From: Candidatus Heimdallarchaeota archaeon
Lineage (GTDB): Archaea > Asgardarchaeota > Wukongarchaeia > Wukongarchaeales > JBHIFL01
Length of the DNA stretch: 32,000 nucleotides
Direction: 5' to 3'
Assembly: GCA_046761065.1 (NCBI GenBank)
Contig: JBHIFL010000019.1
Coordinates: 1 to 32,000, forward strand
How positions within the stretch are numbered: position 1 is the first letter of the stretch; every line of letters begins with the position of its first letter. Made by a program: the position numbers and the translations under genes. A model generated the notes under the pieces. It was not told the origin of the DNA. It saw only the letters and a program-made list of their open reading frames with translations, and searched no databases. Below are positions 11,419 to 28,876 of the stretch, in pieces.

Positions 11419-11593
11419 GCGGGGGTCTCCGAGCCAGGTCAACGCTCAGATCTACCGAGTGGCCTATAAGGAGCAGGACTGTCCATTTCCAATCTGGAAA
11501 GATAAGGGTCTAGAGGCTCCTGTGTGGTAGCACTTCGAGGGTTCAAAAAGAAAATAAAAAAATCTTTTCTGGAAAATCCCTCCCCCCGCACCA
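11419..11593 (+). tRNA. tRNA-Leu(GAG), class II, 175 nt gene with three intervening sequences (D-arm ~26 nt, anticodon loop 32 nt, T-loop ~29 nt); CCA encoded
   Basis: Acceptor gcggggg 11419-25 pairs with cccccgc 11583-89, followed by A73 and cca. D stem tcc 11428-30 / gga 11470-72. Anticodon stem cagga 11474-78 / tcctg 11518-22. The loop is ct + gaggc after removing 11481-11512, giving anticodon GAG with G37. Variable arm tgtggtagcacttc. T stem gaggg 11537-41 / ccctc 11578-82, with ttcaaa...t split by 11548-11576. Confidence 0.75.
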
Positions 11594-11887
11594 TTACATA
11601 CCCATCACAAGAAATCTCATAGATTATTTTTTCATTTTTGAATAATCAATTAATCAAGTAGTGAACTATAGAGAATTTATTCGAGGCATTTATTTGGCAA
11701 TTGAGTATTATTAAATTTTTTAAAAAGCATTTTATTTTCAGATAACTCGGTCACTTGGGAGAGAAATTTAATAGGTTAAATGGGTCAGAATAGACTTTTA
11801 ACAAATTATTTTATGCGAATGAGCTATTATTCGTGTAGTAAGAAAATATTCGAGGGTAAAAGTCTCATATTTTATTTAGGGGTATGC

Positions 11888-12982
11888 ATGAAATCAATTT
11901 TTCACCGACACTTACAAAATACGATACAAGACCCCCACCAGTGTGAGGAGTGTGGTGGGACTCTGATCCAAACAAGTTCGGGTATCACATGTTCCCAATG
12001 TGGATTGGTAAATTTCCAGATGTTTGATGATCCATTATTGAAAATTTCAGAAAGGGACGAAGAGGAGACTGGGGCATTTTCTTATTATGGAGAAAGATCT
12101 CACATCGTTGATGGGATGGGAAGTTTTGTCAGTTATTATGGCGTGAAAACCTTGAGAGATGCCAAGGGAAAAAGACTTAGTCGTGCCAATGAACAAAGGT
12201 TCTTGCGACTCAAGAGGATTAATGATCTTCAATTACATACAATGAACCGGGAATCAGATTATCGAGCGCTCATGGTTCTTAATCGAATGACAAGCTCATT
12301 TCAATTAACAAAGCAAATTCGAGGTCGTGCTGCATATCTGCTTCGTGTTATGATACCATTTATAGATAAAAGCCCAGGATTAAACCGAATCATCTTAGTG
12401 GCAACGGCACTTTACATTTCAATGAGGGAAAATCCTGATGGGAATCCCATCACCCTAACCGAGTTGGTAGAGGGTTTCAAAAAGCAAGGTCATCGTATTT
12501 CAAAAAAAATAATTGTTCGGGCATTATGGACCCTCCGACCAAAGCTTTCAAGAACTTTGGATTTTAATAAAATATTGTCGAAAAGTCAGGATTATATTGC
12601 AACAGTCCTCTACAAGCTCCAAATCGCAGATAAAATAAAAAGGCGGATTAATACACGAAATGTTGATGAACAAAAATATTACCAATCTCTTTTAAAGGAA
12701 ACACGAGATTTACTTCAACGAATTCCTTATCAAGTGCGAGGAGGGCGAAATCCATATATTTTTACAGTGAGTGCCGTGTACGCCGCGGATCACATTATTT
12801 CTCGAAGAGAATTAAAAATTCGCCCTGTTCTTTCGCAAAAAGTAATAGCTGAGGCCACAAATGTTGCAGAATACAGTGTTCGAGATCATTTTGCTCAAGT
12901 CATTTCGAAGTATTTAGATATGAACCCAGGTTCCCAATACAAAGAGAAATTGAGCGGTAGGCATGCTCCTAGCAGGGTTTAG
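11888..12982 (+). CDS. divergent transcription factor B (TFIIB-like) paralog
   Basis: N-terminal zinc ribbon CEECGGTLIQTSSGITCSQCG, then two cyclin-like repeats (QLTKQIRGRAAYLLRVM...RIILVATALYISMRENPDGNPITLTELV; ...RGGRNPYIFTVSAVYAADHII...SQKVIAEATNVAEYSVRDHF). ATG 11888 is preferred to ORF-track 11780. Confidence 0.7.
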   Translation: MKSIFHRHLQNTIQDPHQCEECGGTLIQTSSGITCSQCGLVNFQMFDDPLLKISERDEEETGAFSYYGERSHIVDGMGSFVSYYGVKTLRDAKGKRLSRANEQRFLRLKRINDLQLHTMNRESDYRALMVLNRMTSSFQLTKQIRGRAAYLLRVMIPFIDKSPGLNRIILVATALYISMRENPDGNPITLTELVEGFKKQGHRISKKIIVRALWTLRPKLSRTLDFNKILSKSQDYIATVLYKLQIADKIKRRINTRNVDEQKYYQSLLKETRDLLQRIPYQVRGGRNPYIFTVSAVYAADHIISRRELKIRPVLSQKVIAEATNVAEYSVRDHFAQVISKYLDMNPGSQYKEKLSGRHAPSRV

Positions 12983-12999
12983 GATCGAAGAGGGGCACG

Positions 13000-14517
13000 A
13001 TGGATCGGATTCACCTTGTGGACGAATATCCTGTGGCTCCTTATACTATTCAAATTTATAGTGGGTCACCTACAAAGTCCCTTGAAAAGCTATATGTGCC
13101 CCGTCTTGCACTAGGAAAAAGCCAAGACTTGCTTTTTCTTGATAAAATAAAAAAAGAGACCATAACAAGATTGAAGAGCTTTCAAAAAGCCCCTTATATT
13201 GTGAAACTTGAGGAGTTATCGACAGAACTTGATTATTTGATTAAAAAAGTAGTTGAAGACTTGAACATTAAAATAGACCTGTTTCTATTAAGATTTATCC
13301 GTTATCAAATCTTAGGCTTTTCTAAAATTTTGCCCCTTCTCCTTGATCAACATATTGAAGAAATCTATCTTGATAATCTCCAAACTCCTATATATGTTGA
13401 CCATGCGCAATGGGGGCGTTGTCAAACCAATATTTATCTAGCTAATGAAGACGCCCAGCGACTTATCACCCGCGCTAGAATCGAAGGAAATGCGCCCCTT
13501 AATCGGGGGAACCCCTCTTTAAAGACCGATCTGGTGACTCAAGATTTTACCACTCGAATAAGCATTGATATGGCCCCTTTGGTCATTGAAGGGATTCATT
13601 TCGACATTAGAAAGTTGTCATTACAGCCCCGGACACTTCAGGATCTTATTCAAAATCAGACACTCCCTCCTATCGTTGCTGCCTATCTCGTCTTCCTTCT
13701 CTTGCATCGTTGTAATATTGCTGTCATTGGTGAACCGGGATCTGGTAAGACAACCCTGATGAACGCTTTAGATTTATTAACTCCACGTCATTGGCGAAAA
13801 ATCACTATTGAAGATATAATCGAAAGTATTGATCAATCAAAATTGGGGTTTCATCAAGTGCGATTTAAAGTGGATCCTATAGAAAAAGAGCGCAAAACCA
13901 GCACAAAGAGTTTGGAGATAGTAAAACTTCTTCACAGATCCCCAGACTGGGTCTACCTTGGAGAGATACAGACAGAAGAACAGACTAAAGCCCTCTTTCA
14001 TGCGTTATCGACTGGGTTGAGAGGGATTTTCTCCTATCATGCCACCTCTCCTGAGCATCTTGTGATTCGTTCTACTGCACACTATAAAATCCCCCCCATT
14101 TCTCTCCATGCTTTAGATGTTATTGTACAAATGAAGAAAACATGGAAAAAAAATAAGTTACGACGTTTTGTTTACCGAATTTCTGAGATAGGAGAACTTC
14201 CAGAAGAGCAACTATCAACCGGTTTGCAAAACGCTTTCATTGAGATTAAGGATATTTTCAGGTTTCAACCCAGCACGTCTCAACTAGAACGGGTGGCAGA
14301 TCTTTACACAACCCCCACCCTCGAGCAGATTAAAACGGAACTATATATTAATAAAACCTCATTTTATAAAAAACTCAAAGCATTAAGTGGAACGCTTTCA
14401 GTCTCATATCAAACTGAAAATTTAAACCGAGACCTGAATAGAAAAATCAGAAAAGTAAACTATAATTTACCACAATTACTATTAAATATAATACACAACG
14501 AGGGAGGAAAATCTTAA
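13000..14517 (+). CDS. FlaI/PilB/VirB11-family type II/IV secretion (type IV filament) ATPase, divergent
   Basis: Walker A VIGEPGSGKTTLMNAL, Asp-box-like KITIEDIIE, Walker B/His box HRSPDWVYLGEIQTEEQTKALFHALSTGLRGIFSYHATS. FlaI-like N-terminal domain (IEEIYLDN...PIYVDH...TRISIDMAP...FDIRKL). Confidence 0.8.
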   Translation: MDRIHLVDEYPVAPYTIQIYSGSPTKSLEKLYVPRLALGKSQDLLFLDKIKKETITRLKSFQKAPYIVKLEELSTELDYLIKKVVEDLNIKIDLFLLRFIRYQILGFSKILPLLLDQHIEEIYLDNLQTPIYVDHAQWGRCQTNIYLANEDAQRLITRARIEGNAPLNRGNPSLKTDLVTQDFTTRISIDMAPLVIEGIHFDIRKLSLQPRTLQDLIQNQTLPPIVAAYLVFLLLHRCNIAVIGEPGSGKTTLMNALDLLTPRHWRKITIEDIIESIDQSKLGFHQVRFKVDPIEKERKTSTKSLEIVKLLHRSPDWVYLGEIQTEEQTKALFHALSTGLRGIFSYHATSPEHLVIRSTAHYKIPPISLHALDVIVQMKKTWKKNKLRRFVYRISEIGELPEEQLSTGLQNAFIEIKDIFRFQPSTSQLERVADLYTTPTLEQIKTELYINKTSFYKKLKALSGTLSVSYQTENLNRDLNRKIRKVNYNLPQLLLNIIHNEGGKS

Positions 14518-14543
14518 TCTGTTTATATTAAGCTTATAGAAAA

Positions 14544-16040
14544 GTGAAACGGGGAAAGTCACGGAATATGTTCTTGATGAAGCGTATTTTAAGAAGGCTT
14601 GGCTTTATTCCCCTTGGCGCCCTTTGCCAAAAAACTTCTCAGGAAAAATATATTGATCAATACTTGGAGGAAACATTTGGTATTAATAAAAGAACCTTTA
14701 CAAATAGTTTAATTACTCTACTATTATTATCCTCTTTGTTGATGGGAAGCCTTCTTCTTTTAAGTGGAAAATCACTTATAACCAGCTCTTTAGTCTCACT
14801 TGTCTTTTTTCTTTTTTTAATAAAAATTATCGATCATCTAATTCATACTTCTTATGAGTTACAGCGAACCAGAAAAGATATCACTTCGATTCTTGTTTTA
14901 GCCGAAATTTGGGCAGTTTGGGAGATTACTGGATCTATTTTTGATCTAATTCGATATATAACTCGAGGAAATTATCCAGAACTTTGTGAAAAATGGCAAC
15001 AGCTTCTCATAGACATCAATCTTGGCATGGATCCGGAGAAATCTCTTAGGAAGTTTTTTAAAAAAAATCAATATTTCGAGCTTGATCATGTAATTACTAT
15101 CCTACTTCACAGATCAACACCAGATGAAGCAATTTCCTTAAAGATTGAGGAAATCAAGAGGAATCTCCATGCCCGCTATTTATCAGGATTACAAAAACTC
15201 TCAGATCTGACCTCATTGATAATCGGAGCCAACGGAATTTTACCAATTAGTCTAATTTTAATCTTTTTGATTGCTGGTTTGGGAAATACTCCATTGATCA
15301 TGATCATTCCCACTCTAACAACGTTTCTTACGGCACTTGTTCTTCATCTTGGATTTCAAAACTTCTTTTTAGATCAGTCAAAAGAACACATACTCCAAGA
15401 GAATGAACTCGGTTGGTTTTTATTAAATCTCGGGAGAAAACTCGAAAAAATAGATTGCCAAGAGATTGCTCTCACAGATTTATTATTCGAAGAGGATACT
15501 TCATTCAAAATTGACTCCGAAACCATGGCAGATATTGTATATAACTTGGAAAATACACCACTTCTTGAAAAAACCTTTAATAAATTCCCAAACATCCGTA
15601 ATACAGCACGATTATGTGATAAATTCCTAACACTAGATGTTAGAATTGCTGCCAATAGCATTAAAAAGATTGGTGCCACATTAAATGAGAATAGTTCAAT
15701 TAAAATAAAAGTCCAAAAAGCTATTGATGCTGAGAAGAACCGTATAAAAATGATTCAAGCAATAAATGCTCCAATATTGGGGCTTTTAATATCTATAACC
15801 CCTATACTTTCGCTTATAGGAAATGTTCGCGACTTAGGGAGCCCAAACCTATTGATTTTTCCAAATATCACCCCTTGGTGGGGCCTAATGGCATCAGTAA
15901 GTATTATAATATTAGGGGGCATATACACGCTTAGGAAGCTTTCAGGCAAGACACTAGATACTGTTCAGCTCGGCTTTAATCTCATTCTATTTGTCAGCGC
16001 CTTTTATATCGGTACAAGCTTTATATCTCAACTTTACTGA
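14544..16040 (+). CDS. polytopic membrane protein, FlaJ/TadC/PilC-like platform candidate
   Basis: ~498 aa with several hydrophobic spans separated by two soluble helical regions. It follows the ATPase by 26 nt on the same strand. Family assignment rests on architecture and context, not a clear motif. GTG 14544 or ATG 14568 start. Confidence 0.5.
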   Translation: MKRGKSRNMFLMKRILRRLGFIPLGALCQKTSQEKYIDQYLEETFGINKRTFTNSLITLLLLSSLLMGSLLLLSGKSLITSSLVSLVFFLFLIKIIDHLIHTSYELQRTRKDITSILVLAEIWAVWEITGSIFDLIRYITRGNYPELCEKWQQLLIDINLGMDPEKSLRKFFKKNQYFELDHVITILLHRSTPDEAISLKIEEIKRNLHARYLSGLQKLSDLTSLIIGANGILPISLILIFLIAGLGNTPLIMIIPTLTTFLTALVLHLGFQNFFLDQSKEHILQENELGWFLLNLGRKLEKIDCQEIALTDLLFEEDTSFKIDSETMADIVYNLENTPLLEKTFNKFPNIRNTARLCDKFLTLDVRIAANSIKKIGATLNENSSIKIKVQKAIDAEKNRIKMIQAINAPILGLLISITPILSLIGNVRDLGSPNLLIFPNITPWWGLMASVSIIILGGIYTLRKLSGKTLDTVQLGFNLILFVSAFYIGTSFISQLY

Positions 16041-16074: not shown

Positions 16075-16180
16075 TGGTGCCCCGTGGGGGATTTTCCCCG
16101 AAACACACAATGTTTCGATTTTGAACCCCCGTCGCGAGATCGAGAGTCTCGCATGCTTGACCGTGCTACACCAACGGGGC
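16075..16180 (-). tRNA. tRNA-Glu(CUC) with a 28-nt T-loop intron; CCA encoded
   Basis: Minus strand: gccccgt tg gtgtagcacggtcaagcat g cgaga ctctcga tctcg cgac ggggg ttcaaa [atcgaaacattgtgtgtttcggggaaaa] t ccccc acggggc a cca. The intron is plus-strand 16092-16119 and contains a 7-bp hairpin cgaaaca/tgtttcg. Confidence 0.8.
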
Positions 16181-16568
16181 TTTACACTTTCGGTTTTTTA
16201 GATATAATTTTATTTTTTCAATTATACCTATCAATTGAGGTGAAAACCCTTTTAATATCACAGATAGTGGACCTCCAATTCTAAAACTTTTGAAGATCCT
16301 ACCTCTAAAAACACTGCTTTGATACAAAACTGATAGGCTAGATTATCTAGGTTTCCTCCTTAAATGTTCCTTTATTAACTTTGTTTTATTTAATCTGTCC
16401 ATATTTTAGCTTATTGTGAATCATTTGAAGTGAGTGGATATTCCTATTTTAAAAACGCATTCAAATCCTCTATGAACAAAAAATCTATCTGAGTCCTTGA
16501 AATCCAACTCTTGAAGATTGAAGTCTAGTGTGTGACTTATAGATTTTTTATTTTTTAAACATTGAAAG

Positions 16569-19135: not shown

Positions 19136-19471
19136 TTAATCCACTTCTTCGATATATTTAAAGATCGCATTGAGCTTGGTCCGATCCAAGTTAGGATATC
19201 GCTCAGAGATAATACTTTTGAGCTCTTCTAATGTTTCAGGAAGTATATTACAAATTTGAACAGCCGACTCCAAATCCAAGTCAAAATCAGCCTGTAATCT
19301 TGCGATTAGACGAGATGCTTGATCTGCACTCAATCGGGAAAATTTTGTTGCATGATCAAGAGCAACACGCTGGGTATAATTAAAATTCCCATCTTCTGCG
19401 CGTTGTTCCAACATCGCCTTTACTTCCGAGATAGCCAAAGGCTTTTGTTTCAAAATCTTTCTGGGCACCAC
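19136..19471 (-). CDS. rpoF: DNA-directed RNA polymerase subunit F (Rpo4/RpoF, Rpb4 homolog)
   Basis: ~111 aa with PLAISEVKAMLEQRAEDGNFNYTQRVALDHATKFSRL...AVQICNILPETLEELKSII. GTG start; synteny with eL21. Confidence 0.75.
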   Translation of the reverse strand: MVPRKILKQKPLAISEVKAMLEQRAEDGNFNYTQRVALDHATKFSRLSADQASRLIARLQADFDLDLESAVQICNILPETLEELKSIISERYPNLDRTKLNAIFKYIEEVD

Positions 19472-21891: not shown

Positions 21892-22983
21892 TTATTTGAC
21901 AATGTTATAAGTATCTTTCAAAGGATTATCTCTGACCTCCTCCCCACCCTGAAGGGTTGAGGGTTCCGAGTTCGCTCGCGTTCGGGGCGGTGCCTCCTTG
22001 GGGGGATGAGTGCTCCCCTCGCATCTACCTCTTTTTGCATGCGATTGAGCAATACTTGGACGGCCTGTGATATTGAACGCCGCATTCACATCCGCATGCC
22101 CAAGCTGTCCACACTGGGGACAAAAGAACGCTTTCTCATTTCGAGTGCCTAGGTGTCCACACCGGCTACACGTTTGCGAAGTATAGACAGGATCAACATA
22201 GATGACGGGGATTTTTAGCAGCTTGGCTTTGTATTCTATCATCTGTTGGAGTTGATAGAACGACCAACTGTGCAAGGAATAGAGAAATGAGCGCGTTGAT
22301 TTGGCGGTTTGGCGAACCCCATTTAATTGTTCCATTTTTAAGCCGAGCTTGCTGAGCTAGAGTCATGCGTTTTCGGCTGATTTTATGGTTCGTGTCCCGC
22401 ATGATCCGCCGCTCGCGATCCTTGACCTTCTTGACCAGTTTGTAGGCTCCAGCTTTCTGCAGCTTCTTCCGGTGGTTCTAGTATTTCTTGTGGATATGCT
22501 CGCATTTTTTGCCGAGTTTCCATCTTTTCCTGTCGTAGGATTGGCAAACACCGCGAAATGTCCTGTAGTGTTGAGATCTACCCCAAGATAGCCCTTCGGC
22601 TACATAGGGGGTTGTTCAGGAATGGTCACTGCCACATAGATGTAGGTGTCCCCTACCTCAATTTGGTTAATCTTCTCAAAATGGTTAGGGAACTCCTAGT
22701 GGGAGGAGAACTTCAAGCAAGGTACTCGAATGAGCCGCTGGGCTTAATCCCCTTTAATCCCTTGATTGGGAATGGTCAATTTAACCGACGGCACCCGTTT
22801 GATGGTTTTATTTCGCCCATATTTCCACAAAATTTGGTTGGCAATCATAGACTTGAGTCCCAAATGCTTGACGTCTTTCTAGGAGAAGATACGATGTTTA
22901 AGGGTAAATACCGCCACTTGCCGGGCTTTGCGAAGGTCTTTCGAGAAGTCCCAGGTATGTTTAGCTTTGTAGGTGAGAATCAT
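21892..22983 (-). pseudogene. tnpB: tnpB (RNA-guided RuvC nuclease family) pseudogene
   Basis: Own translation from ATG 22983: MILTYKAKHTWDF... with in-frame stops TAG 22879-81, TAA 22744-46, TAG 22696-98 and TAG 22600-02. It continues YLGVDLNTTGHFAV (RuvC-I), has a frameshift in the ggaaaaga run near 22525, a further TAG, and a second frameshift near 22340. The 3' ORF keeps SWSFYQL...[15 protein letters not shown]...[20 protein letters not shown]. Confidence 0.85.
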
Positions 22984-23393
22984 TTCCCTTTCTGCTCCTC
23001 GATATATTTTTTCACAGCTTCGAGCGTCACTGCTCCCACTGAGGAAATAAACTTAGAATGCGTCCACAAGGTTGGAAGACGGCGCTTCAGCTGAGGAAAG
23101 TCTTCACGAAGGTGGCGAGAGGTATAGCCCTTGATTTTGTTCACGATCAGGAAAATGCCAATCTTCGGGCTTACATCTAGCAACAAATGCGCATGATCGG
23201 ATAATATTTCCATATCAAGAACCTCATAGCCGTACTCTCGTTGCTTTTCAAGAACCAAGGCTTTCAGGGCAGTAGCAATATCCTCTTCGAGCACTGGACG
23301 GTGATACTTCGGACAGAAAATCATATAGTTTTGACAACTATAGACAAAGTGTTTAGCTGAATGATACTTCTTGGTGCGTTGTTTGATCGCCAT
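22980..23393 (-). CDS. tnpA: IS200/IS605-family Y1 (HUH) transposase TnpA, apparently intact
   Basis: 137 aa: YSCQNYMIFCPKYHRPVL, HUH motif SDHAHLLLDV, LPTLWTHSKFISSVG, and the C-terminal helix VKKYIEEQ carrying the catalytic Tyr (compare IS608 KQYIENQ). Confidence 0.9.
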   Translation of the reverse strand: MAIKQRTKKYHSAKHFVYSCQNYMIFCPKYHRPVLEEDIATALKALVLEKQREYGYEVLDMEILSDHAHLLLDVSPKIGIFLIVNKIKGYTSRHLREDFPQLKRRLPTLWTHSKFISSVGAVTLEAVKKYIEEQKGK

Positions 23394-28321: not shown

Positions 28322-28876
28322 ATGTCTGTTATAGCGAGAGTAAGTATGTACAAAGGAGTTGACTGCAGAATGCCTCCACACAGTGCCCTTAGCATGATTG
28401 AGGAGATAGGTGGTCAAGATGCTGTCAAGGTCGTCCAAGTTCTAAATTCGAAAAAGGATATAACCGATGAGCAAATTGCAGAAATCACTGGTCTAAAACT
28501 AAATATGGTCCGAAAGGTTCTTTATAAACTAAATGAAAGTCAAATTGCCACCTATCGGCGCGAACGAGATTCAGAAACGGGTTGGTTTGTGTATTTTTGG
28601 TTCCTTCGACAAGAAAAGCTTGAAAACTTGATAAAGGGGCGACAAAAAGCTGTTCTTAGAATATTAAAACAACGTTTTGATTTCGAACGACAAAATGACT
28701 TTTATATCTGCGAAAACAAATGTCAAAAGTTAGTTTTTAATGAAGCATTTGAAGTAGGTTTTACTTGTCCTAAGTGTAACTCATTATTGGTCCAAATTGA
28801 TAATGGAACGCTGATTAAAGTCTTAGAAAGGAAAATTTCTCAACTTTCTAAAGCTATAAACGATTTCGAAGAGTGA
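28322..28876 (+). CDS. tfe: transcription factor E (TFE, TFIIE-alpha homolog)
   Basis: Winged helix ITDEQIAEITGLKLNMVRKVLYKLNESQIATYRRERDSETGWFVYFW, plus zinc ribbon YICENKCQK...FTCPKCNS. The true start may be ATG 28370. Confidence 0.82.
   Translation: MSVIARVSMYKGVDCRMPPHSALSMIEEIGGQDAVKVVQVLNSKKDITDEQIAEITGLKLNMVRKVLYKLNESQIATYRRERDSETGWFVYFWFLRQEKLENLIKGRQKAVLRILKQRFDFERQNDFYICENKCQKLVFNEAFEVGFTCPKCNSLLVQIDNGTLIKVLERKISQLSKAINDFEE

Follow-up and report, generated by a model that had tools for sequence, protein, structure and literature searches.

We analysed a 32-kb stretch of DNA from a Candidatus Heimdallarchaeota archaeon (the window), in which three co-directional open reading frames (ORFs) link a paralogue of the general transcription factor TFB to a secretion ATPase and a polytopic membrane protein. 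The three genes (the trio) are separated by gaps of only 17 and 26 nt, as had been described in an earlier note made from the sequence alone, and are probably co-transcribed. Their GC content (0.35-0.39) is close to that of the surrounding sequence. In related genomes the trio has counterparts that are linked to a gene for a short, pilin-like protein (mini-pilin), which is missing from the locus studied here. The locus, bounded on both sides by tRNA genes, is laid out as follows:

11419..11593, + strand: upstream boundary, tRNA with non-canonical inserts
11594..11887, + strand: slot of 294 nt between this tRNA and the TFB-like gene, without a mini-pilin ORF
11780..12982, + strand: divergent TFB/TFIIB paralogue, 400 aa as listed
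13000..14517, + strand: TadA/FlaI/GspE-family secretion ATPase, 505 aa
14544..16040, + strand: polytopic membrane protein, probable fusion of two diverged T2SSF-like halves, 498 aa
16075..16180, - strand: downstream boundary, tRNA-Glu(CUC) with a T-loop insert

The ATPase is 100% identical to a protein labelled 'Candidatus Heimdallarchaeota' at NCBI and the TFB-like protein 85% identical to one labelled 'Candidatus Hodarchaeota', the nearest database proteins of the locus being those of Heimdall- and Hodarchaeota metagenome-assembled genomes (MAGs). Pfam annotation of the window revealed no prepilin peptidase, pilin or Fla accessory gene, and a hidden Markov model (HMM) of the mini-pilin had no match there; the absence of such genes nearby, already remarked upon in the earlier note, thus holds for the window.

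The first gene encodes a strongly diverged TFB-family protein

The product of gene 1 aligned over its full length to the NCBIfam TFIIB model NF001658 (E 2.3e-12) with 46.6 bits against a cut-off of 384, which leaves it outside the canonical archaeal TFBs (NF001658/arCOG01981); Pfam reported only Zn_Ribbon_TF (E 0.31) and no TFIIB repeat. A profile of 19 family members nevertheless matched P. woesei TFB and human TFIIB in the PDB (9e-11). The AlphaFold model had a mean predicted local distance difference test score (pLDDT) of 71, with 80-93 in the cyclin region, and when it was searched with Foldseek the top matches were TFIIB in pre-initiation complexes (7nvu_M, 6.8e-8) and P. woesei TFB (1d3u_B), followed lower down by Brf2 and Brf1 and lower still by cyclins. 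A specific affinity to Brf1, Brf2 or Rrn7 was rejected because both fold and profile matches put TFIIB/TFB ahead of Brf2 and Brf1. At the fold level the protein belongs to the TFB/TFIIB superfamily, with a CxxC...CxxC zinc ribbon, whose four cysteines are conserved, and two cyclin folds; profile, AlphaFold and Foldseek agree on the architecture that had been proposed from the sequence. The true start is probably at 11888 (364 aa), since homologues are 335-355 aa long and an AGGGG Shine-Dalgarno-like element precedes Met37.

Two motifs set the family apart. The B-reader, HIVDGMGSF in the window paralogue, follows a strongly conserved family pattern, [HV]DG[ML]GS[YF]I, which replaces the canonical HDKGLST. 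The helix predicted to read the B recognition element (BRE, the element read by TFB) is NVAEYSVRDHF in the window and in the family a strongly conserved VAEYSVRDHY, which replaces VTEVTIRNRY while keeping the Arg. Family members from TACK archaea are intermediate between the canonical motifs and the Asgard variants. Some Promethearchaeota MAGs carry two TFB-like copies under one locus-tag prefix (P0018/P0019 and P0032/P0034; locus tags ACFFCD_10525/17445 and ACFFA5_01065/05005), and one TFB-like representative (P0266) is fused to leucine-rich repeats.

The second and third genes encode an ATPase and a probable platform

The product of gene 2 is a member of the Pfam family T2SSE (PF00437; E 1.2e-15, 57.5 bits against a cut-off of 24.9), and its closest solved structures are AfGspE (2OAP, 1.6e-31), FlaI (7e-22) and CpaF (5e-16). 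The models for FlaI (NF058587, 100.4 bits against a cut-off of 550) and BasE (NF053672, 84.3 bits against a cut-off of 1000) were missed widely, and the genes that flank the trio have housekeeping functions; the trio does not, therefore, lie in an archaellum, Ups, Aap, Bas or Ced operon. The departures from the family consensus to which the earlier note had drawn attention are real (TIEDIIES, GEIQTEE and STGL...YHAT in the window ATPase), but they are not oddities of this one protein. Asgard and TACK ATPases have the signatures IED[VI][IV]ES, GEIQT and (A/T)GL...H in common: in an alignment of 121 sequences, the Q of GEIQT is found in 115 and the L of (A/T)GL in 110, and no sequence departs at the Walker A Lys (GEPGSGKTT), the two Glu of the Asp box, the catalytic Glu or the last His.

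The membrane protein encoded by gene 3 has about 6-7 predicted transmembrane segments and no Pfam or NCBIfam match of its own, T2SSF included. Its residues 1-270 and 271-498 correspond to two separate membrane proteins of about 215-325 aa, M1 and M2, in Heimdall, Odin, Hermod, Loki, Frey, Jord and TACK loci. These separate proteins do match Pfam T2SSF (PF00482) in part: M1 in 6 of 14 cases (best 6.1e-6) and M2 in 5 of 15 (best 3.1e-5). M1 and M2 are weakly related to each other (hhalign E 3.8e-4, 36% probability), the M1 alignment, used as a profile, matched nothing in the PDB, and a single-sequence structure model of the window protein was unusable (pLDDT 38). By transitive homology, then, the comparison supports a fused and diverged TadB/TadC- or FlaJ-like platform. 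With the T2SSE match of gene 2 and the T2SSF matches among the orthologues of both gene 3 halves, the proposal that the two genes provide the motor ATPase and the platform protein for a machine like those of type IV filaments is supported.

The TFB-like gene and the ATPase gene are linked across Asgard and TACK archaea

An exhaustive profile search for the TFB-like family gave 189 clusters (50% identity) at E<=1e-30, and a scan with one genome per species placed the family in at least 256 species genomes. Its Asgard carriers are Thor-, Heimdall-, Hod-, Odin-, Hermod-, Jord-, Frey- and Atabey-archaeia and Loki/Promethearchaeota, and its basal clades include Thermoprotei and Verstraetearchaeota MAGs. 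Of 92 loci, 85 have the ATPase gene next to the TFB-like gene and 81 have both on one strand, the median distance from the start of the TFB-like gene being about 1.1 kb; Thor loci, which are not independent, dominate these counts. The pair occurs in Thor, Heimdall, Hod, Odin, Hermod, Atabey, Jord, Frey and Loki genomes and also in the TACK lineages Methanomethylicia, Nezhaarchaeota and Thermoprotei, and across the 92 loci it is kept while all other neighbours differ from class to class. Many lineages have as little as 1-60 nt between the two genes; those of Loki, Frey and Jord are transcribed divergently and separated by 1-1.7 kb. Lack of such linkage in related genomes had been named beforehand as grounds for giving up the idea of a module; it is conserved, and the module is ancient, common to Asgard archaea and several TACK lineages. 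No TFB-like::ATPase fusion was found among 150 representatives, the long matches other than P0266 having no ATPase domain.

In TACK loci (Methanomethylicia, Nezhaarchaeota and one more lineage) the order is Lsm_C, then TFB-like gene, ATPase, M1, M2 and a small ORF. An Rpo8-type gene lies directly upstream of the TFB-like gene, and co-directional with it, in 64 loci (Thor, Odin and Nezha), all Thorarchaeota included; it is not found in the window. The assignment rests on Pfam RpbG (1e-8 in Odinarchaeia, 4.5e-6 in Nezhaarchaeota) and on a Thor-only HMM that recovers the Pfam-validated Rpo8 proteins. Three examples (L followed by a number denotes a locus) stand for these and 61 other loci:

L080, 7481-7837: Rpo8
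L089, 4188-4562: Rpo8
L028, 7414-7800: Rpo8

Further genes accompany the module in particular lineages. Odin and Hermod loci have extra genes between the TFB-like gene and the ATPase (L080 9185-10655, L079 3366-4015, L064 8943-10663), which encode a 131-aa protein with a classical prepilin-like N-terminus (LEKA|FSLTLSL...), a 3-transmembrane protein of about 80 aa, a MinD/ParA-like ATPase (CbiA 1.7e-8; TadZ/FleN-like) and a 117-aa protein. Two TACK loci have a HerA-like DUF87 ATPase gene directly after the mini-pilin gene (L089 9939-12958, L090 11999-12966), followed in Nezhaarchaeota by a gene for an XPD-like DEAD_2 helicase as well; these ATPase and helicase neighbours could hint at a DNA-related role.

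Related loci encode a Flp-like mini-pilin that is missing here

The small ORFs of TACK and Loki loci share the sequence [KR]-[GA]|[SG]-[PQ]-L-[IV]-E-E-[GS]-[IL]-L, after which comes a single hydrophobic helix. Gly/Ala at -1 and Glu at +5 make this a class III/Flp-like signature, and the mature protein would have about 54 residues. An HMM found the mini-pilin in 78 loci, of which the following are examples:

L028, 10789-11064: mini-pilin
L055, 7481-7675: mini-pilin
L004, 6603-6818: mini-pilin
L080, 14460-14645: mini-pilin
L087, 9664-9897: mini-pilin

No Pfam pilin model was significant on it (best Pilin_N, 0.015), which may explain why surveys overlooked the protein. Its gene stands after the ATPase in Thor loci and after M2 in Odin, Hermod and TACK loci; in Loki, Frey and Jord it lies in the interval that separates the divergently transcribed genes for the ATPase and the TFB-like protein. 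In Heimdall loci it is placed between tRNA-Glu and the TFB-like gene, in the order tRNA-Glu(CTC), mini-pilin, TFB-like gene, ATPase, M1, M2. Among Thorarchaeota species the protein hardly varies.

With two HMMs and motif scans, neither the window nor the further ~6 kb of its contig nor the relative L091 gave a mini-pilin match, and this Hodarchaeota-like lineage is the only one without the mini-pilin in the locus. Here, the insert-bearing tRNA is followed by the 294 nt and the TFB-like gene, M1 and M2 are fused, and tRNA-Glu(CUC) stands inverted after the fused gene. Since the Heimdall tRNA-Glu(CTC) lies directly upstream of the mini-pilin gene and the corresponding gene here lies downstream of the trio, the locus has been rearranged in this lineage. 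The pilin-less state is a derived, lineage-specific feature; the description of the whole system as a pilin-less module, to which the sequence of this one locus had led, is not supported, given the Flp-like mini-pilin of the 78 related loci.

An ORF of 131 aa that precedes the TFB-like gene of L091 was weighed as a possible pilin and rejected, as it has no transmembrane segment and contains an ambiguous residue. It is unrelated to the prepilin-like protein of Odin and Hermod, and its window counterpart is fragmented and non-coding.

A G-rich element precedes the TATA box of the mini-pilin promoter

Upstream of the mini-pilin gene, loci from five Asgard classes share the motif GGG(G)[TC]TTAAATA, a run of G in the BRE position followed by a strong TATA box (G-rich-element promoter sequence: GGGTTTAAATA). 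Examples of its sites are:

L004, 6503: G-run and TATA box
L008, 7063: G-run and TATA box
L080, 14418: G-run and TATA box
L079, 7660: G-run and TATA box
L073, 996: G-run and TATA box

As a regular expression the motif had 18 matches in 2.75 Mb (both strands), 14 of them just upstream of the mini-pilin. When TATA-like boxes in the same loci were compared, at least three G in the preceding 5 nt were found at 25 of 39 sites upstream of the pilin and at 6 of 126 before other genes, with a G fraction of 0.59 versus 0.14; Thor loci dominate these counts and are not independent, and the motif recurs across classes. The single strongly G-rich control site (L032 13426) precedes a PolD DP2-like gene. 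In the window the motif did not occur above chance. A G-rich element in the BRE position, in a family whose BRE-reading helix is itself altered, suggests a concrete mechanism in which the paralogue would act as a dedicated promoter-specificity factor.

The module resembles, and differs from, known systems

A TFB-family gene beside a pair of ATPase and membrane-protein genes, which the earlier note had taken to be without a described precedent, was published in 2016: in subclade 4D of the Thermoproteales, an ATPase, a protein with 4-5 transmembrane segments and a TFIIB homologue (arCOG05559) are encoded in one operon, next to RPB8 and without pilins (Makarova, Koonin & Albers 2016, PMC4858521). 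The authors suggested a transcription-related role for 4D (PMC4858521). A 2026 preprint restates 4D and describes type IV filament (TFF) systems as widespread except in Asgard archaea, where only 'core machinery' was reported (bioRxiv 10.64898/2026.04.22.720090). The trio has the defining combination of 4D (ATPase, 4-5 transmembrane protein and TFIIB homologue in one predicted operon) and its polytopic protein likewise has little resemblance to known families; neither the window nor L091 has a pilin, but 78 related loci do. The differences are several. The 4D ATPase (arCOG05558, PAE2119-like) is short (335-343 aa) with a Cys-rich N-terminus and no C-terminal domain, whereas that of the window has 505 aa and a full C-terminal region; the 4D TFIIB homologue has a single cyclin domain and the window protein two cyclin folds. 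RPB8 linkage, seen in 4D and, as Rpo8, upstream in the 64 related loci, is missing from the window. 4D was described from Pyrobaculum/Thermoproteus only and without a recognised pilin, whereas the TFB-like family spans Asgard and several TACK lineages, most of which carry the mini-pilin. Compared by lengths and domain counts as described, the trio is a variant of the 4D kind rather than a proven member.

Likeness to the Tad/Flp pilus lies in the CpaF-like ATPase, the two paralogous T2SSF-like platform proteins and a pilin of about 50 residues with a short basic leader, a predicted cleavage site after Gly/Ala and Glu at +5 (G|XXXXEY in Flp, G|SPLIEE in related loci); archaeal Epd-like pili can be likened in the same way. 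A Flp-type prepilin and a dedicated peptidase, which define Tad/Flp, are both missing from the window, while related loci have the Flp-like G|SPLIEE protein and no peptidase nearby. No secretin or TadZ is encoded in the locus either, although Odin and Hermod have the MinD/ParA-like gene. Unlike Tad/Flp pilins, the mini-pilin falls below Pfam pilin models and is unusually conserved, and the system is further set apart by the linked TFB paralogue and by an ATPase without the canonical Arg and His. With the archaellum (FlaI/FlaJ), the bindosome, Ups and Aap it shares the ATPase superfamily and a polytopic T2SSF-type partner; the FlaI and BasE cut-offs are missed, however, and archaellins, FlaF/G/H/X and other accessory genes are absent.

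Sulfolobus offers precedents, likened here by description, for TFB paralogues with promoter- or regulon-specific transcription. TFB3 activates the ups pilus and ced genes (PMC6101594, PMC6101591), so that its regulon includes type IV pilus genes, and TFB2 drives a specific (cell-cycle) regulon. TFB3 differs in being truncated, without the cyclin core, and in acting in trans with TFB1, its gene not lying beside a pilus ATPase gene. TFB2 is a gar1-linked copy, whereas members of the present family are full-length and linked to the ATPase and Rpo8.

Flanking genes and insert-bearing tRNAs

The trio is embedded in housekeeping genes. Upstream lies a ribosomal-protein operon with L30 as its last gene, then genes for an Lsm_C protein and PAC2; downstream are those for a SpoU methylase, KsgA, DUF655, RpoF, L21e, Pus10, SRP54, TFE-alpha and PAN. 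Transcription-machinery genes are unusually numerous in this region, the 32-kb window also containing the genes for RpoF (Rpb4; 19136-19471, - strand) and TFE-alpha (28322-28876, + strand).

Both tRNA genes that bound the trio were recognised by comparison with L091 and manual inspection; Rfam (at gathering thresholds and at E<=1) and ARAGORN, run on the window and on the 1.7-kb gap, missed them. The upstream tRNA (11419-11593, +) has GCGGGGG at the 5' end paired with CCCCCGC at the 3' end, and an encoded ACCA. Its T-arm, GAGGG-TTCAAA[28-nt insert]AT-CCCTC, is broken in the T-loop, and the gene has one or more inserts besides. Identity to L091 is 92-94% over the gene and 70-76% in the flanks, with a compensatory change in one hairpin; brute-force removal of inserts gave Leu-GAG, Ser-AGA and Gly-ACC as isotype candidates. 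A 51-aa ORF at 11439-11594 (-) is therefore spurious. The downstream tRNA-Glu(CUC) (16075-16180, -) has a T-loop insert of about 25-28 nt and an encoded CCA, and a 66-aa ORF at 16084-16284 (+) is this tRNA read as protein. The T-loop inserts occupy the same position in both tRNAs.

An IS200/IS605-type element lies 6 kb from the trio (21892-23393, -). It consists of a Y1 transposase gene (22980-23393) and a C-terminal fragment of TnpB (21892-22335) with a Cas12f1-like TNB domain, coincides with a local GC bump (0.474) and is a recent insertion, since the syntenic relative L091 is without it.

A proposed Tad/Flp-like filament module with its own TFB paralogue

We propose, with a probability of roughly 0.45, that these genes form a Tad/Flp-like filament module with the TFB paralogue as its dedicated promoter-specificity factor, and that the locus studied here is the Hodarchaeota-lineage copy from which the mini-pilin was lost. 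The hexameric ATPase, docked on the platform, would use ATP to pull the processed mini-pilin out of the membrane, and the extracted subunits would be polymerised into a thin Tad/Flp-like filament or a short pseudopilus. Together with TBP, the paralogue would serve as a promoter-specificity factor, functionally like an alternative sigma factor. It appears to retain the zinc ribbon that docks on RNA polymerase, a variant B-reader and both cyclin folds, with an altered BRE-reading helix, and could thus recruit RNA polymerase to the promoters of the module, above all that of the mini-pilin with its G-rich element in the BRE position. In the present genome, the mini-pilin lost from the locus would be encoded elsewhere or be absent. 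A dedicated regulator, one of the roles that the earlier note had considered, is still the best reading of the first gene, with indirect support from the special promoter upstream of the mini-pilin.

Several observations weigh against this proposal. Makarova et al. favoured a non-pilus, transcription-related role for 4D (PMC4858521). In the ATPase family the GE[IV]R Arg and the leading His of the His box (TGH) are both replaced, so that its activity could be altered, as far as the motifs can tell. Thorarchaeota loci, which dominate the locus counts, have no adjacent platform genes. In the same genomes, the median identity is 75% for the mini-pilin, 64% for the TFB-like protein and 45% for the ATPase (mini-pilin 76% and ATPase 45% in the main bin), which is atypical for a surface pilin, and a prepilin peptidase was not seen in any examined locus. 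Finally, the window keeps all three genes without the mini-pilin or an above-chance promoter motif, so that the paralogue must have other targets here, or the pilin is encoded elsewhere in the genome.

The machine could instead have been repurposed, making no pilus and serving a membrane process related to transcription or nucleic acids. The TFB-like protein (and Rpo8) would then be no regulator but a physical partner of the ATPase or an adaptor for its substrates, in essence what Makarova et al. proposed for 4D. Rpo8 stands directly upstream and co-directional in about 60 loci, and also in Thermoproteus (PMC4858521), the ATPase is less conserved than both the mini-protein and the TFB-like protein, as would be expected if these two were partners in an intracellular complex, and such a role would also fit the Thor loci without platform genes nearby, the family-wide alteration of the ATPase active-site periphery and the HerA-like ATPase and XPD-like helicase after the module in two TACK loci. 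In the mini-protein, however, the processing signature is of the classic class III/Flp type, and its gene has a strong promoter to itself, as expected of a major pilin; the platform halves are T2SSF-like, no fusion of TFB-like protein and ATPase occurs among the 150 representatives, and the TFB-like protein retains the elements for ordinary initiation-factor function; we consider repurposing plausible but not likely. We rate about equally the chances that the linkage is inherited synteny without a direct connection, the paralogue being a general alternative TFB (like Sulfolobus TFB2) within an old housekeeping super-cluster. Archaeal translation and transcription gene clusters often combine unrelated functions, and from TACK to Asgard the ribosomal-protein operon, Lsm_C, PAC2, aCPSF, Rpo8, RpoF, L21e and KsgA recur as neighbours; moreover, the window retains the TFB-like gene without a pilin nearby, and the pair is divergent and 1-1.7 kb apart in Loki, Frey and Jord. 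Yet this pair persists while every other neighbour changes between classes, is as close as 1-60 nt in many lineages and was noted independently in Thermoproteales (PMC4858521), and the promoter peculiarity falls exactly where a TFB reads DNA.

Judged from about 38 kb of the source genome and from related genomes, it is very improbable that the first gene is the sole housekeeping TFB, fast-evolving in Asgard archaea. Such a gene would be expected in essentially every Asgard class, as is the case for the family, but a score of 46.6 bits against the 384-bit TFIIB cut-off, the replacement of near-invariant canonical TFB motifs and the second family copy in some MAGs argue otherwise. NCBI labels family members hypothetical proteins, the canonical TFBs of Hecatellales and Bathyarchaeota form a separate group, and the TACK lineages with the TFB-like family are known to have canonical TFBs. 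Even less credible, and in our view close to negligible, is the idea that the trio is cargo of a mobile element, as the earlier note had also envisaged, or of anti-phage defence. The tRNA genes on both sides and the IS200/IS605 element 6 kb away might invite it; the GC content is unremarkable, however, 2.9 million viral contigs (IMG/VR) contained no relatives, PHROG matches were weak and PADLOC gave no meaningful match, no integrase or repeat boundaries were found, and across phyla the module has been inherited vertically, in syntenic housekeeping surroundings.

The mini-pilin and its G-rich-BRE promoter are parts of the module that had not been recognised, and its range (Asgard and TACK) is broader than the literature states. 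A more far-reaching version of the filament proposal, which we hold to be rather doubtful, is that the sigma-like paralogue reads the G-rich BRE and switches on a Flp-like mini-pilin system which TACK and Asgard archaea inherited from their common ancestor, and which the lineage that founded the eukaryotes would hence also have had, that it was co-inherited with Rpo8 and that it is perhaps coupled to the ATPase. With such coupling, filament assembly would feed back on transcription, as flagellar export controls sigma-28 in bacteria.

If the filament module is real, nearly all Asgard and several TACK lineages would share it, together with its dedicated TFB paralogue, in contrast to surveys in which such systems are largely absent from Asgard archaea, pilin-less and confined to Pyrobaculum/Thermoproteus. 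It would be a possible archaeal relative of the bacterial Tad/Flp pilus and might account for the thin filaments observed on the surface of Asgard archaea in culture. It would also provide a clean natural case of BRE-based promoter selectivity, with a defined promoter and a defined factor, and the co-inheritance of the TFB paralogue and Rpo8 in the lineages closest to eukaryotes would bear on how the TFIIB family diversified.

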